32,000 nt of DNA from Candidatus Saccharimonadota bacterium (GCA_003516025.1 CP023991.1:210001-242000); one strand, 5' to 3'. Counted from the first letter of the stretch, positions 9,333 to 15,955 are shown. The notes: generated by a model not told the origin, from the sequence alone. Translations and numbers: made by a program.

Positions 9333-10712
9333 CTAGGCGCTGGCGGCTTCTTGTAAAGCGGCGCCACTGATCTCGTAGCGGCGGCCTTCCGTGCCCCAAC
9401 CCTTAACTTCATCTTTGAATTTGCCCATGACCATAACTTCGAAGAAAGCTATGAAGTAAATGCCGATTTCCAGCCAGCGCAGGAAGTAGAAGTAAGGAAT
9501 CGAACCAAGCATGTTCCAGCGGCGAATAGCAACTGACGCCCATACGGCGATAAGGCTGTTAATAATGTAATCAGCGGCAATAGCAACCGGAATGATCATC
9601 CAGTTACCGGTAACGTAAATGATGTAAGGCAGTAGGATAGAAATTTGCAGCACAAACAGCAGGGCTTGGCCCATCTGGAAGCCGAGGCTGGCGTCAATTT
9701 TCTGGCCATGCAGACCAATTTTATACTTTTTGACACCTTGGAAGAAACCGCGTTGCCAACGCATATTTTGTTTGCAAAAATCTTTGAGTGTTTGCGGGTC
9801 CTGAGTGTAGTTGACGGCTTTTGGAATAAACACGATTTTACCGAGCTTTTTGCGGTGAACCTGTAGTGTGATGTCGAAGTCTTCGGTTAAGCTGGCGCCG
9901 TCTAGTTCAAGCTCCTTCCAGATATCCATCCGGAAACAAGTGATTGGGCCGGGAAATACTGAAATCATGCCCAGTTTAGCCTGGATGCGGCGGTTTACGT
10001 GCTGGCTATAGGAATACGTCAGGGCGCGGTAGGTGCTGATCCAGTTGCCCTTAAGGCTTTGTACGAAGCCAACGGCCACCGCGTACTTGCTGGCATCGAG
10101 CTTTTTATAGTATTCACGGAAATAGTTTGGTGAGAATACGCTGTCGGCATCGGCAATGTGCAACCACACGTAGCGGTTTTCCATGTCGAAGTGCTGTACG
10201 GCCTTCTGTACGGCCAAGGCTTTACCGCTGCGACTCACGGTTAGTACATTTGCGTCTCCGAGTAATTCGCGGGCAATTTCTTCGGTGCGGTCGGTCGAGG
10301 CGTCATTAACTACGTAAATTGATTCGATTGGCTGACCGGCCGCTACGGCAGACTGAATAGTATAGGCGACAATTAGTTCTTCGTTGTGTCCTGGTAGAAG
10401 TAAGGCCAGCTCTCTTTTTGCCGGAGCAAGGACTGGTGTCGTCGTCCACGGGTCAATGGGGGCTTCGACAACCGGCAGCGCAGTAATAACAGGGACAATG
10501 GGCGGCAACTTTGGGAGCGCGGCGGCTGGCTCGGTATGGGCAACGGGCCGAGCGGTAACTGTGGTTCGCTGGCTAGGCTGCACCGGACGGGGCGTATAGC
10601 CAGGGGTACGTCCGGTCGGCGCGGTAGCAAAGCTACGGCGAGTATACACGGCAACAATAGGCTGTCGTTCTACAAATTGCGGACTGGACCGATGGTCCCT
10701 AACCTCAGACAT
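9333..10712 (-). CDS. processive family-2 glycosyltransferase (NodC/IcaA/PgaC/chitin-synthase-like) with a Pro-rich N-terminal extension
   Basis: DASTD and DADS acidic motifs, QNMRWQRG (QxxRW), C-terminal TM helices. The start is ambiguous. The ATG at 10712 lies 9 nt downstream of TGCTATAAT (10730-10722), and the ATG at 10739 would contain that box. Confidence 0.8.
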   Translation of the reverse strand: MSEVRDHRSSPQFVERQPIVAVYTRRSFATAPTGRTPGYTPRPVQPSQRTTVTARPVAHTEPAAALPKLPPIVPVITALPVVEAPIDPWTTTPVLAPAKRELALLLPGHNEELIVAYTIQSAVAAGQPIESIYVVNDASTDRTEEIARELLGDANVLTVSRSGKALAVQKAVQHFDMENRYVWLHIADADSVFSPNYFREYYKKLDASKYAVAVGFVQSLKGNWISTYRALTYSYSQHVNRRIQAKLGMISVFPGPITCFRMDIWKELELDGASLTEDFDITLQVHRKKLGKIVFIPKAVNYTQDPQTLKDFCKQNMRWQRGFFQGVKKYKIGLHGQKIDASLGFQMGQALLFVLQISILLPYIIYVTGNWMIIPVAIAADYIINSLIAVWASVAIRRWNMLGSIPYFYFLRWLEIGIYFIAFFEVMVMGKFKDEVKGWGTEGRRYEISGAALQEAASA

Positions 10713-10764
10713 AATACTTGCATTATAGCATAAATACAATAAAAATGCAAGTATGGCAAATATG

Positions 10765-12294
10765 TTACATTTCGTGCATCACGGTAATGTGCGCGCCAAG
10801 CGAGTTCAAGCGTTCTGCTAAGTCTTCATAACCCCGGTTAATAGTATAGACATTGCGCAGAATACTGTTGCCATTAGCCGCAAGCATACCGATGAGCAGT
10901 AACGAAGCGGGGCGCAAGGCAGGCGGGCACACCACATCGGCCGCGCTGAACTTAGTTGGACCAGTGACGTATACGCGGTGCGGATCAGCTAATTCGACAT
11001 TGGCGCCGACTTTTGTCATCTCGGTGTAGTAAATGGCGCGGTTTTCATAGGTCCAGTCATGGATGAGCGTCCGGCCGCGGGTTACGGACGCGATTGGCAC
11101 GAAGTAGGGTAGGTTGTCCTGGTTGAGGCCGGGGTAAACGTTAGCGTGGATCTTCTCTGTTAGGGCATGCAGTTTGCCATCATGTTTATGGATGGTGAGG
11201 TCGACCAGGTCGGTTTTACCATTGGTGGCCTTGTAGCGCTCGCTTTCGGTGTAGGAAAGCCCCATTTTCTTCAGTTTGAGCATTTCAAGCGCCATAAAGT
11301 CGACGGGAACACGCTTAATGGTAATTTCTGAGTTGGTTGTTACGGCTGCCGAGGTAAAGAACATGGCTTCGATTGGGTCTTCACTTGGGGCGAAGGTAAC
11401 ATTTTTCCGAATTTCCGAAACGCCTTTGATGCGTAGTGTGCTGGTGCCTATACCTTCGATCTGGACGCCAAGCTTCTGCAGGAAGAAACAGATATCCTGC
11501 ACCATGTAGTTGGCGCTGGCAAATTGCAGTACCGACTCTTCCGGTGAGCGGGCGGCCGCTAACAGGGCGTTTTCGGTTACGGTATCACCTGATTCGTAGA
11601 GGACAATGCGCCCGGCTGGTTTTTTATCGACCGTCACATTGTAGTGGCCATTGGTAGCCACGATGTCGACGCCAAACTCTTCAAGCGCGTACAAATGCGG
11701 CGTAACGGTGCGGGTGCCAAGCTTACAGCCGCCGGCGTAGGGAATCTTGAACGCCTGGTAGTCGTGTAGCAGCGAGCCGATCATCATCAGTACGGAACGG
11801 GTCTTACGGGCCGCCTGAATGTTGATTTTCTCCAATTTCAGCTCTTCAGGCCGGCGGATTTCGATATCGTTGCCGGGCAGCCACTTAACCTGCACGCCCA
11901 TGCTTTCCAGGACTTCGATAATACGGTACACCTCTTCGATGCGCGGGAACGACGTAAACTTAGTGACGCCCTTGTTCAGCAGGCTGGCGCACAGCAGGGC
12001 GACGGCGGCATTTTTACTGGTCTTAAGGGTAATTTCTCCATGCAGTTCGTGGCCGCCTTCGATGCGCAGGTTCATGGCGGTGCCGTTTAAAGAGATAAGC
12101 TGCTTGTTGAGGACGTCGCTGATACGGCCTAATGTCTCCATGGTCAGGTTTTGCTTGCCCTGTTCGATGCGGTTGACGGCTGACTGGCTGGTGGCCAGCT
12201 TTTTAGCGAATTCCGCCTGGGTAAGGCCGCGTTCCTGGCGGATGCGGGCAATTAAAGTGCCAATCTTATTACTGTTTGGGTCAGCTGTTTCCAT
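10765..12294 (-). CDS. murA: XRE-type HTH domain fused to UDP-N-acetylglucosamine 1-carboxyvinyltransferase
   Basis: 509 aa. Residues ~10-65 are a Cro/C1-type HTH (LTQAEFAKKL..SQSAVNRIEQGKQN). The remainder is full-length MurA (KTSKNAAVALL, catalytic Cys in YAGGCKLGTR). Confidence 0.85.
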   Translation of the reverse strand: METADPNSNKIGTLIARIRQERGLTQAEFAKKLATSQSAVNRIEQGKQNLTMETLGRISDVLNKQLISLNGTAMNLRIEGGHELHGEITLKTSKNAAVALLCASLLNKGVTKFTSFPRIEEVYRIIEVLESMGVQVKWLPGNDIEIRRPEELKLEKINIQAARKTRSVLMMIGSLLHDYQAFKIPYAGGCKLGTRTVTPHLYALEEFGVDIVATNGHYNVTVDKKPAGRIVLYESGDTVTENALLAAARSPEESVLQFASANYMVQDICFFLQKLGVQIEGIGTSTLRIKGVSEIRKNVTFAPSEDPIEAMFFTSAAVTTNSEITIKRVPVDFMALEMLKLKKMGLSYTESERYKATNGKTDLVDLTIHKHDGKLHALTEKIHANVYPGLNQDNLPYFVPIASVTRGRTLIHDWTYENRAIYYTEMTKVGANVELADPHRVYVTGPTKFSAADVVCPPALRPASLLLIGMLAANGNSILRNVYTINRGYEDLAERLNSLGAHITVMHEM

Positions 12295-12319
12295 GGTTGG
12301 TTCTCGTTTAATAAATGTA

Positions 12320-12339
12320 TTATATCATATATGATATAA
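12320..12339. promoter_or_regulatory. perfect 20-bp palindrome TTATATCATATATGATATAA (candidate operator)
   Basis: Exact self-complementarity checked base by base. It lies 26 bp upstream of the HTH::murA start and overlaps a minus-strand TATAAT. Confidence 0.6.
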
Positions 12340-12413
12340 AGTGTAGCAGTATATTTTTATGTTGGTTTACTGTTCATAACTGTATACCATAGGCCGTTAC
12401 TGTCAACGGGGAA

Positions 12414-12515: not shown

Positions 12516-13796
12516 ATGCAGGATACTGAAATTCAAAAACTGATCGAAGCCGAGGAAAAACGTCAGCGTGAGGGCCTGGAGCTGATTCCAAGCGAAAACT
12601 ATGTTTCCCGCGATGTTTTGACGGCCATGGGTAGTATTTTTACGAATAAATATTCCGAGGGCTACCCCGGCAGGCGTTATTACGGTGGCCAGGAAAACAC
12701 CGACAAACTGGAAACTATAGCCATCGAGCGGGCTAAGAAATTATTTAACGCCGACCATGCCAACGTGCAACCGCACTCGGGAGCACCGGCCAACGAAGCC
12801 GTCTACAGCGCCTGGCTCGAACCAGGTGATACCGTTTTAGCCATGGATTTAGGCCACGGCGGCCACTTAACGCACGGCGCGCCGGTTACCCGCAGCGCCA
12901 AACTGTACAACTTCATACGCTATAAGATGAAAGACCCGGCCACCGGCGAGATCGATTACGAAGAACTGGCTGAGTTAGCGCGCAAACACCAGCCGAAAAT
13001 TATTCTGGCAGGTTTTAGCGCCTATCCACGTGAGCTGGACTATGCTAAATTCGCTGAAATCGGCAAGTCCGTACCTGGTTGCTTGCTGATGGCTGATATG
13101 GCCCATATCGCCGGTTTAATTGCTGCCGGTGTCGCTAAAAATCCGTTTGATTACGGTTTCCATGTTATCACCACGACTACTCATAAGACGCTGCGCGGTC
13201 CACGCGGCGGCTTGATTTTGTCCAAAGGCGTCGTTGGCAATCCGCTCCGCGCACCCGAAAAGACGCTGGAAAATATCCCGACCCTTATCGACCGTGCGGT
13301 CTTCCCGGGCATGCAGGGCGGGCCGCATATGCATATTATTGCCGCTAAAGCCGTAGCTTTCGGCGAGGCCTTGAAGCCTGAATTTAAACAGTATGCTGAG
13401 CAGATCGTCAAGAATGCCGCTACGTTGGCTGACGCGCTCAAAAACCGCGGCTTTTACCTCATGACCGGCGGCACCAGTAACCACCTGATTCTAGCCGATG
13501 TTCATAAAAGTTTTGGCCTGGACGGTAATGTCGTGGAAGTGGCGCTTGATAAAATCGGCCTGACCCTCAATAAAAACTCCGTAGCCGACGATCCGCTGCC
13601 ACCGTTCCGCCCCAGCGGTATTCGCCTCGGTACGCCGGCCATTACGACCCGCGGCCTGGTTGAAAAAGACATGGAGCAGATTGCCGAATGGATGAAGCAG
13701 GCAGTTGATAACTACGAAGATGATGCCAAGCTGGTAGAAATTCATGAAGAAGTAAAAGCTTTCGCTTTGCGGTTCCCATTACCAAGCGATACGTAA
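12516..13796 (+). CDS. glyA: serine hydroxymethyltransferase
   Basis: LIPSENY motif and PLP-lysine motif TTTTHKTLRGPRGG. The ATG at 12516 follows AAAGGGGA, so it is preferred over the upstream TTG-type start at 12462. Confidence 0.93.
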   Translation: MQDTEIQKLIEAEEKRQREGLELIPSENYVSRDVLTAMGSIFTNKYSEGYPGRRYYGGQENTDKLETIAIERAKKLFNADHANVQPHSGAPANEAVYSAWLEPGDTVLAMDLGHGGHLTHGAPVTRSAKLYNFIRYKMKDPATGEIDYEELAELARKHQPKIILAGFSAYPRELDYAKFAEIGKSVPGCLLMADMAHIAGLIAAGVAKNPFDYGFHVITTTTHKTLRGPRGGLILSKGVVGNPLRAPEKTLENIPTLIDRAVFPGMQGGPHMHIIAAKAVAFGEALKPEFKQYAEQIVKNAATLADALKNRGFYLMTGGTSNHLILADVHKSFGLDGNVVEVALDKIGLTLNKNSVADDPLPPFRPSGIRLGTPAITTRGLVEKDMEQIAEWMKQAVDNYEDDAKLVEIHEEVKAFALRFPLPSDT

Positions 13797-13805
13797 GGAG
13801 GCTTT

Positions 13806-14289
13806 ATGGCTGACAAAAGGTTCATGACGAGACAAGCGGTTTTTGTTGTGCTGCGTAATGGTAATGGCGAGGTATTGTTGCAACAACGGGCGAATACCGG
13901 TTACCTAGACGGTTACTGGGATTTGCCAAGCGGTCACGTGGAATATGTATGGCGAATCTTTTCGTAAAACGGCGGCACGTGAGCTTAACGAGGAAGTTGG
14001 CGTAGAGGTTGCGATAGACGACTTACGGCTTATTCATGTGGATCAGTCTTTTCTTGATAGAGATTATGTGAACTTGACCTTCGTGGCCGATGCATGGAGC
14101 GGTCAGCCACGAATCTGTGAACCGGAAAAGTGCAGCGCTATCGGTTGGTTCGCAACCGATGATTTACCAGAAAAGAGTGTCAATGTAGTACGCGTTAACG
14201 AACGGGCGGGTTTTACTGACGCGCTGACGTATTCGACGACCGATCAAAAGGCATATGAAAGTTTCATGGGCGGGCCACTTGAGCCGTAG
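13806..14289 (+). pseudogene. NUDIX hydrolase interrupted by a +1 frameshift
   Basis: A GGAGG RBS precedes the ATG at 13806. Frame 1 encodes ...GYWDLPSGHVEY and stops at 13965. The rest of the NUDIX box (GESFRKTAARELNEEVG) continues in the +1 frame from 13945. The junction is the tandem TATGTATG at 13944-13951. Confidence 0.75.
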
Positions 14290-15319
14290 TAGGTAATAAT
14301 TCCGGTTCCTGTTCCAGTGTAATTTGAAATTTTGTGAAAACCGCATCCACGATTTTTGTTTTAAACTTCACGAGATCAGCGGTACTGGCAGCGTGTTCAT
14401 TCACTAATACCAGAGGTTGGGTTTTCCAGGTCGCCATGCCAGTTTCCGTATCGTGGTAATCTTTAAAGCCGGCCTGTTCGATGAGCCAGGCGGCTGGTAT
14501 CTTACGTTTATCGGGTTCGTCAGTCAGCCATAGGGGCATTTCCGTAAATGTCGCACTAAGTTTCTCTGCTAATGATGTATCTATTATCGGGTTGGCAAAA
14601 AACGACCCATTATTGGCTACCCGCGCCGGGTCCGGCAGCTTATGCGACCGGATGTCTATAACCGCCTCACGTACCGACTGGGGCGTAAAGCTGGTAATGC
14701 CATGGCTACCAAAATAGTCTTCGACGGCCCGGTAAAATGGCGGCTGAGGATTATCACACGCTAGCCGCAATGTGATATGTGTAATAAGGAAGCGGCCACG
14801 ATCAACAGTTTTGAAACGACTGGAACGATAGGCAAACTGGCAATCTTGTGCGGCTATGGTCACAAATTGCTTTGTTTGTAGGTCGTAAGCTTCTAGGTCA
14901 AGGAGTGTCTCCGATATATCCTGGCCGTAAGCGCCAACGTTTTGAATCGGGGTAGCACCTGTTGTGCCAGGGATGAGCGAAAGGGCTTCGATACCGCTCA
15001 AGCCACTAGCTACGGTTCGGGCCACCATACTGTCCCAGCCCTCACCGGCACCGATTGTAACGTCAACGAGACGGTCGGAGACTGGGGTTTCGGCGTAACC
15101 ACCTATTTTGTTTACCAGTAGTAAACCGTCGAAGCCGGAATCCTGCCAAACAATATTACTGCCGCCGCCGATCATCAGAATAGGAAGGTTTTTGCCCGCG
15201 GCCCAGGACGCCGCTTCAACAAGATTATGCTTATTTGTGATTTCCATCACATAACGGGCGTTGCCACCCAGCCGCATAGTGGAGTACAGGGCAAGGTTTA
15301 CATTTTCAAGTGGCTTCAT
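14264..15319 (-). CDS. murB: UDP-N-acetylenolpyruvoylglucosamine reductase
   Basis: 351 aa. FAD-binding N-terminal region (RLGGNA...GGGSN) and MurB C-terminal domain. The 3' end overlaps the NUDIX remnant by 26 bp. Confidence 0.88.
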   Translation of the reverse strand: MKPLENVNLALYSTMRLGGNARYVMEITNKHNLVEAASWAAGKNLPILMIGGGSNIVWQDSGFDGLLLVNKIGGYAETPVSDRLVDVTIGAGEGWDSMVARTVASGLSGIEALSLIPGTTGATPIQNVGAYGQDISETLLDLEAYDLQTKQFVTIAAQDCQFAYRSSRFKTVDRGRFLITHITLRLACDNPQPPFYRAVEDYFGSHGITSFTPQSVREAVIDIRSHKLPDPARVANNGSFFANPIIDTSLAEKLSATFTEMPLWLTDEPDKRKIPAAWLIEQAGFKDYHDTETGMATWKTQPLVLVNEHAASTADLVKFKTKIVDAVFTKFQITLEQEPELLPTTAQVARP

Positions 15320-15355: not shown

Positions 15356-15955
15356 TTGCCAGCGGGCGGGCAGAAGTTTACTATAAAAGGAGTGCAGGAT
15401 TCGAATCAGAATACACCATTTAGGACTCTTGGCAACCGACTGAAGTATTTGCGTGAGCGTTCTAAGGAAACGCTTGCCGAAGTGTCAGGTGCTGTTGAAA
15501 TTGACGAAGAAAGCTTGCTTCGTATGGAAAACGGAACGGAACGGCCAAGCGAAGAAATTCTCATGCTTCTCATGAGCCACTTTAATATGCAGGATAGTGA
15601 GGCGGTACAGGTCTGGGAACTGGCCGGATATGACCGTAAGAATGGTCCTGAACTGCTCAATTCTGAGGACTTAATGGGGAATAACAAACCCGTGGTTATG
15701 CTGCTGGCTGTTGATGTCCGTACCCAGTACACGGACGGCGTCGACATTAACGGCGACAACGCCGGTATTACTATGACATTTACGCAGCAGGGCAGTAACA
15801 ATACCCGCCAGCCGGTGGCCCGGGTTGGCATGAGTGTAGAGCAAGCTAAAGCTGTTTCCATAGCTTTACAGCGCACACTGCTGCACTTGGCTTATCAGCG
15901 CCGTAAGGGGCTGCCATCGCCGGACAACTCCAGTAATTCAGGTGAAAAGTCCTAA
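15356..15955 (+). CDS. XRE-family HTH protein with an uncharacterised C-terminal domain
   Basis: HTH region LGNRLKYLRERSKETLAEVSGAVEIDEESLLRMENG. The start codon is uncertain (TTG at 15356 or GTG at 15392). Confidence 0.7.
   Translation: MPAGGQKFTIKGVQDSNQNTPFRTLGNRLKYLRERSKETLAEVSGAVEIDEESLLRMENGTERPSEEILMLLMSHFNMQDSEAVQVWELAGYDRKNGPELLNSEDLMGNNKPVVMLLAVDVRTQYTDGVDINGDNAGITMTFTQQGSNNTRQPVARVGMSVEQAKAVSIALQRTLLHLAYQRRKGLPSPDNSSNSGEKS

Follow-up and report, generated by a model that had tools for sequence, protein, structure and literature searches.

The sole MurA of a small soil Saccharibacteria genome carries an XRE-type helix-turn-helix (HTH) domain at its N terminus, and over the promoter of its gene lies a palindrome that is a candidate operator for that domain. 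We consider it probable that HTH-MurA is a dimeric enzyme that represses its own gene, and we infer DNA binding, repression and the dimer from sequence patterns and structural models. According to this model, the C-terminal 435 residues would be the cell's only MurA (UDP-GlcNAc enolpyruvyl transferase), and the N-terminal HTH would bind ATATCA-N4-TGATAT over an extended −10 box of the gene's own promoter. Pairing through the MurA body would seat two HTH heads on half-sites whose centres are 10 bp apart, and the bound dimer would block RNA polymerase, such that the amount of MurA would hold down MurA synthesis by negative autoregulation, the target in this genome being the single murA promoter. 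The features concerned are listed in Table 1 by their position in the window, by which we mean the whole 32,000-nucleotide stretch of DNA that was analyzed.

Table 1. Features of the fused murA gene, its upstream region and its neighbours (positions counted from the first letter of the window)
Feature	Position	Strand	Remarks
HTH::murA coding sequence	10765..12294	-	ATG start; 509 aa plus stop; sole PF00275 match of the genome
XRE/HTH_3 domain, residues 15-66	12097..12252	-	Pfam HTH_3, E 1e-13
Presumed recognition helix, T35-E44	12163-12192	-	Within XRE/HTH_3 domain
Short linker, residues 67-74 (about 8 residues)	12073..12096	-	Low pLDDT; variable among aligned orthologs
MurA enzyme domain, residues 75-509	10768..12072	-	E 1e-52 to solved MurA 5ujs
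Cys190 codon of MurA domain	11725-11727	-	
Perfect 20-bp palindrome, proposed operator	12320..12339	.	26 bp upstream of ATG
Dyad core ATATCA-N4-TGATAT	12322-12337	.	Sole perfect core in genome
Extended −10 box TGATATAAT	12319..12327	-	Formed by right half of dyad; read from sequence
Hexamer TATAAT of extended −10 box	12319-12324	-	24 nt before ATG
Two further promoter-like sites, TTGACA-16-TACAGT and TGAACA-17-TATACT	12348..12406	-	Upstream of dyad; consensus matches only
glyA (serine hydroxymethyltransferase)	12516..13796	+	Divergent; Pfam SHMT E 1e-155
GT2 glycosyltransferase	9333..10739	-	25 nt downstream of fused gene
murB	14264-15319	-	Same strand as fused murA
Second HTH gene (HTH_31 protein, 199 aa)	15356-15955		Divergent from murB

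The initial annotation had described a complete Cro/C1-type HTH at about residues 10-65, followed by a full-length MurA that retains the Cys loop YAGGCKLGTR, and profile searches bore out both descriptions. The HTH_3 match scored 51.6 bits against a Pfam gathering cut-off of 23, and the EPSP_synthase match (PF00275, E 1e-41) covered residues 79-496 and model positions 2-417 of 417, with Cys190 present in its loop. The nearest solved structures are MurA enzymes, 5ujs among them. The protein passes the NCBIfam MurA subfamily model NF006873 (314, cut-off 297) and falls below the murA equivalog model TIGR01072 (304, cut-off 392.7). An AlphaFold monomer model (mean pLDDT 87.9) gave a confident MurA body, mostly above 90, and an HTH head of four helices (6-21, 26-33, 37-44 and 52-62) at pLDDT 70-85, joined by a linker whose residues 67-71 fell below 50. 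Public databases call the protein plain MurA and assign its close relatives to Candidatus Saccharibacteria/Saccharimonadales.

Both the enzyme body and the head are strongly conserved. Among 26 orthologs 53-86% identical to this protein, K94, N95, R166, C190, R195, D306, D393 and R419 were invariant, positions that we take to be E. coli K22, N23, R91, C115, R120, D305, D369 and R397 from the alignment with 5ujs and the known MurA motifs. Equally invariant were T35, S36, Q37, S38, A39, R42, E44, G46, Q48 and N49, which make up the third HTH helix and the turn after it. Like canonical MurA (EC 2.5.1.7; C. jejuni 5ujs, E. coli 1uae), the fused protein has the two-lobed fold and the catalytic Lys, Cys-loop, Arg and Asp residues, but it differs in about 74 extra N-terminal residues containing the HTH and in belonging to a separate family clade. 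The full two-lobed EPSP-synthase fold, the retained catalytic residues and the presence of the Mur pathway place it among MurA enzymes, with enolpyruvyl transfer as its predicted activity. The genome, a single contig of 1,005,782 bp that is 98.5% complete, also encodes MurB, MraY and five genes of the Mur-ligase family, and because the fused gene is its only EPSP-synthase-family member, the fused protein must supply the first step of the pathway. A glmS gene was not found in the genome (best match 16.7 bits). In a genome of the same family, a second and very divergent MurA-like frame (G013:C1:317054-318418; 489-aa open frame, 24% identical) sits beside the fused gene.

The proposed operator is tied to this one gene. 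The perfect core occurs once in 1,005,782 bp, and the genome has three sites with one mismatch, the same number as shuffled sequence. The motif of the presumed recognition helix likewise appears in no other reading frame or protein of the genome. The second HTH gene of the window, which the initial annotation had correctly noted at 15356, encodes an XRE protein with no similarity to the HTH of the fused protein, and we dropped it as a candidate binder of the dyad on that ground and because the helix motif is found nowhere else in the genome. In the window, the two promoter-like sites upstream of the dyad have stronger hexamers than the dyad's own −10 box, and a consensus scan places the dyad at about +4 to +19 of the nearer one, TGAACA-17-TATACT. 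Judged from these matches, the putative operator is in a repressing position whichever promoter is used.

Comparison with related genes showed that the dyad is retained and varies symmetrically. Upstream of 32 orthologs (54-87% identical), the dyad was perfect in 17, had one mismatch in 4 and two mismatches in 6, ended 9-29 nt before the start codon in most, and overlapped the −10 box in the orthologs as well. Half-site variants in which both halves are changed also occur: ATACCA..TGGTAA at two loci (L008 and L011), with the same form seen by eye at L032; ATACCA..TGGTAT and ATAGCA..TGCTAT in MAGs of Uhrbacteria and Parcubacteria, respectively; and ATCTCA..TGAGAT in Streptomyces, Actinacidiphila and Lapillicoccus, all near 70% G+C. 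In other classes of the phylum, a site with at least 11 of the 12 core bases preceded 10 of 15 fused genes; for unfused MurA genes belonging to that clade the figure was 0 of 16. These figures are counts rather than a test and overstate the support since related genomes are not independent. The dyad was also absent upstream of the unfused gene P0124. We therefore regard a unique, conserved and symmetrically varying sequence pattern as the predicted cognate site of the HTH. These observations lend strong support to the suggestion of the initial annotation that the protein may be an enzyme and a transcription factor in one: a dyad suited to an HTH dimer lies over the promoter of the fused gene, here as in nearly all fused relatives, the halves change symmetrically between lineages, and unfused relatives have none.

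Several further features of these upstream regions were recorded. At two Brachybacterium loci and one uncultured Actinomycetota locus (L115, L117 and L110), no dyad was found within two mismatches of the searched core; there the site may have diverged further or be missing. In most orthologs only 6-10 nt separate the −10 box from the ATG, which suggests that their mRNA is leaderless, whereas the leader of the gene in the window is longer, about 17 nt, with a weak ribosome-binding site, and its product has three additional residues at the N terminus. In one genus, a second perfect dyad, ATATCATGTGTGATAT, is present in two genomes (G170 and G090; L034:2044-2059 and L035:648-663), about 65 nt upstream of a gene for a 91-aa Lys/Gly-rich small protein that may be stress-protein-like. 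Its conservation in two species points to a possible second regulon member in this genus.

Whether the HTH can dimerize had been raised in the initial annotation, and structure prediction supplied part of an answer: pairing is predicted through the MurA body, but the HTH heads were not confidently placed. A homodimer model of residues 8-507 scored 0.72, compared with 0.01 for the best of three controls. Among proteins of known structure, 20 of the 30 solved as one-chain pairs and 1 of the 23 single-chain ones scored as high, counts that hold only roughly for a run that used its own alignment. At least 89% of contacts were common to the runs, with a partner pLDDT of at least 86, and all confident contacts fell in the MurA body (195-202, 231-235, 257-261, 283-286, 332-343, 379-389, 412-414 and 437-439). 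These segments presumably draw on both MurA lobes, given the domain boundaries of MurA, a hint that ligand-driven lobe closure could affect pairing. W414, D437 and H439 were considered as interface residues specific to the clade and dropped, because W-D-H is found in many unfused MurA proteins too. E. coli MurA has been described as a monomer, and the model could echo crystal packing remembered from solved MurA entries.

A search of 50%-identity cluster representatives also revealed fused proteins only 33-41% identical to this one, which keep the helix TSQSAxxRxExGxQNL and have lost the Cys loop and the residues matching R91 and R120 and, in some, K22. For one of these catalytically dead forms, P0183, a perfect site lies 19 nt before the ATG and murB is nearby. 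Two others, P0130 and P0143, each lie opposite a divergent pair, an unfused murA-like gene and then murB, and have Mur ligase and Ddl genes downstream of themselves; the 60-bp gap at the P0130 locus contains ATATCATATATGATAT, which has the same core as the dyad in the window, and the P0143 locus has ATAACATATATGCTAT at the equivalent place. The unfused enzymes beside P0130 and P0143 keep residues matching K22, R91, C115, R120, D305 and D369 and have Gly at the position aligned to R397. P0142 sits after NUDIX and nucleotidyl-transferase genes, each preceded by a one-mismatch site. Loci with dead HTH-fused MurA-like genes include L041:4624-7503, L040:3768-6740, L039:9966-11467 and L038:8686-11554. 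Because head and site persist where catalysis is gone, which would otherwise be hard to explain, a regulatory role of the head is indicated, and these relatives are probably dedicated regulators of wall-precursor genes.

Three other explanations of the fused gene were weighed. An artefact of annotation or assembly, either two merged genes or a true start downstream of the HTH, was the concern raised by the initial annotation, and we give it practically no credence. It could draw on a methionine, M74, that lies at the HTH/MurA junction and is kept within the genus, but M74 is not kept outside the genus and was on that account rejected as a conserved internal start. The HTH-MurA frame is unbroken in more than 100 genomes, closed ones among them, and close relatives have a stop codon shortly 5′ of the same first methionine, at a distance of a few codons. 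Of the codons that differ from those of ten relatives, 74% in the HTH region and 71% in the MurA region are synonymous, and by this measure both domains of the protein are under purifying selection. With the full-length form also present in nearly all sampled relatives of the order (see below), the fusion is real and translated. A second alternative is that the protein works chiefly as a regulator with an inactive, sensing MurA-like body, and that wall synthesis begins otherwise, for example from host-derived precursors. Saccharibacteria are host-dependent, fused relatives with dead catalytic sites exist, and the score below the murA equivalog cut-off would fit such a role. This alternative nevertheless seems very improbable to us, given that the eight catalytic-domain residues listed above are invariant throughout the catalytic clade and that this is the sole MurA-family gene in a genome where MurB, MraY and Mur ligases are retained. 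Moreover, two of the dead forms with readable loci (L040 and L041) adjoin a separate murA-like/murB pair, whereas this genome has no such pair.

The remaining alternative concerns the head, which might bind no DNA and act instead as a protein-binding or localizing module, in which case the palindrome would simply belong to the promoter or be bound by some other factor. XRE-type HTH domains have been re-used for protein contacts, as in RodZ, where the domain contacts MreB rather than DNA. RodZ resembles HTH-MurA in being a cell-wall-related protein with an XRE-type HTH, but it sits in the membrane, has no enzyme activity and is not known to be accompanied by a conserved dyad. The right half-site equals the extended −10 box, and part of its conservation is therefore expected without any repressor. 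In addition, the recognition helix is nearly unchanged where the half-site differs (ATATCA versus ATCTCA), so helix and site have no visible joint change and the variable half-site positions may not be read directly. Against these points, the left half-site has no promoter role yet mirrors the right one and changes with it across phyla, and within the clade the site accompanies fused genes but not unfused ones. The genome's one perfect site and its one matching helix motif are found at the same gene, and the other XRE protein of the window is dissimilar to the fused HTH. We consequently judge a head that binds no DNA to be unlikely and retain autorepression as the preferred reading.

The phylogenetic spread of the fusion, which the initial annotation had proposed to establish, proved to be near-universal in the sampled genomes of the order, scattered in other Patescibacteria and extended to Actinomycetota. 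Of 40 relatives sampled in the order, 38 had the full-length fusion (query residues about 5-509), a tally that takes in the unpublished genomes G010 and G023, on which nothing else reported here depends; of the remaining two, G036 has as its sole match an HTH piece truncated at a contig end, and G040, which is 81% complete, gave no match. G036 and a genome of the class sample, G078, were considered as carriers of stand-alone HTH genes and ruled out, both matches being cut by contig ends. In other orders of the class, MurA is a stand-alone protein of about 420-450 aa with 26-31% identity to the fused one, and of about 285 genomes sampled from the phylum's other classes, 15 had a fused form. The catalytic fused form also occurs, at 56-58% identity, in cultured Actinomycetota, namely Streptomyces sp. 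SPB162, S. rimosus, Actinacidiphila polyblastidii, Brachybacterium vulturis and Actinopolymorpha rutila, and a protein atlas includes a fused cluster whose members are mostly from Actinomycetota. Actinomycetota loci with the fused form include L106, L109, L114, L117, L118 and L120.

In trees, catalytic fused forms, dead fused forms and a small number of unfused ones grouped into a single clade separate from ordinary MurA. In a quick IQ-TREE search, run on sequences of unequal amino-acid composition and without a secure root, the Actinomycetota forms made up one group (SH-aLRT 100) that was nested among Patescibacteria as sister to one family of the order, f18, to which a Nanosynbacter record belongs (SH-aLRT 99). 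This placement hints at gene transfer between the epibionts and the phylum of their hosts.

The neighbouring genes are conserved to different degrees. Divergent glyA, whose start was inferred from the onset of homology and an AAGGGGA ribosome-binding site, adjoins the fused gene in 64 of 91 related loci across a gap of about 200 bp. The fused gene had been described as heading a cluster with a GT2 synthase; a GT2 gene does follow closely, no terminator-like site was found on the minus strand between the two, and they are possibly co-transcribed, but a GT2 neighbour occurs in just 7 of 91 related loci, which excluded it as part of a conserved unit. Likewise, the reported divergence from glyA and murB holds for glyA and not for murB, which is on the minus strand as murA is. 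The pairing of an HTH_31 gene with murB recurs at the distant locus L039 (6703-8413), suggesting that a second, separate small regulator acts at murB.

Among known systems, the closest parallel is with enzymes that carry their own DNA-binding domain. BirA is both a biotin protein ligase and the repressor of the biotin operon, with biotinyl-AMP as the corepressor that drives its pairing. HTH-MurA resembles BirA in combining an N-terminal HTH and an enzyme in one chain and, by prediction, in that pairing of the bodies seats the heads on a palindromic operator of the pathway's own promoter; it differs in that BirA has a winged HTH, another enzyme fold and a known corepressor, whereas any ligand effect on HTH-MurA is hypothetical. 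PutA, NadR and archaeal RbkR are similarly metabolic enzymes fused to a DNA-binding domain that controls genes of their own pathway, but their folds, pathways and DNA-binding domains are different (ribbon-helix-helix in PutA) and none is known to act in peptidoglycan synthesis; RbkR is described as a bifunctional enzyme and regulator (PMC5397151). Small XRE/Cro-C1 autorepressors such as phage 434 Cro/cI and HipB, the latter also among the matches to solved structures, share with HTH-MurA the HTH_3 fold and a short dyad over the −10 region of their own promoter. They pair through the HTH or a small C-terminal domain, whereas the predicted pairing surface of HTH-MurA is a 435-residue enzyme. As in trigger enzymes, an enzyme and a DNA-binding domain are found here in one polypeptide, with a putative operator at a gene of the same pathway, and HTH-MurA is most likely a bifunctional enzyme-repressor. 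In its strict sense the term, which the initial annotation applied to the fusion, also implies that occupancy by substrate or product tunes DNA binding, and for this the predicted pairing surface on both lobes is an indirect hint.

MurA has been recognized as a control point of wall-precursor flux in other bacteria. Published work describes control of MurA by CwlM in mycobacteria (PMC4946905), by the PASTA-kinase and IreB or ReoM in Firmicutes (PMC12077105; 10.1101/2024.04.02.587704), and by LpxC-MurA coupling (PMC9995270). In each of these systems, partner proteins activate, inhibit or degrade the MurA protein, and none involves a MurA that binds DNA. The murA2 gene of Streptomyces papers is a BldM-WhiI target (PMC4125116) and is not equated here with the fused gene. 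We found no published description of an HTH-MurA fusion in the literature on MurA with HTH, XRE, Saccharibacteria, Patescibacteria or MurA2.

A fuller version of the autorepression model, which we put forward tentatively and hold to be rather doubtful as a whole, makes the enzyme a ligand-gated autorepressor. More speculatively than the rest of the model, UDP-GlcNAc, PEP or UDP-MurNAc would open or close the MurA lobes, with altered pairing and hence altered DNA binding; lobe closure might occur on UDP-GlcNAc/PEP or on the end product UDP-MurNAc. The dead descendants would then be wall-precursor sensors controlling murA-murB in other Patescibacteria, and the catalytic form would have moved between Saccharibacteria and their Actinomycetota hosts. 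If true, ultra-small bacteria would possess a one-protein feedback loop for wall-precursor flux, and the catalytic form would be an extra MurA in the Actinomycetota hosts.

The MurA controls described in the sources cited above all act on the protein through partners; a MurA acting at its own promoter would set wall-precursor flux in a new and minimal manner. Inside one family, the dead fused proteins that adjoin murA-like/murB pairs show a path from enzyme to regulator, and the presence of the fused form in cultured Streptomyces and other Actinomycetota makes the idea testable by ordinary genetics and biochemistry. If it is true, a self-reading MurA would be standard throughout a large, host-dependent bacterial group that has very few regulators.
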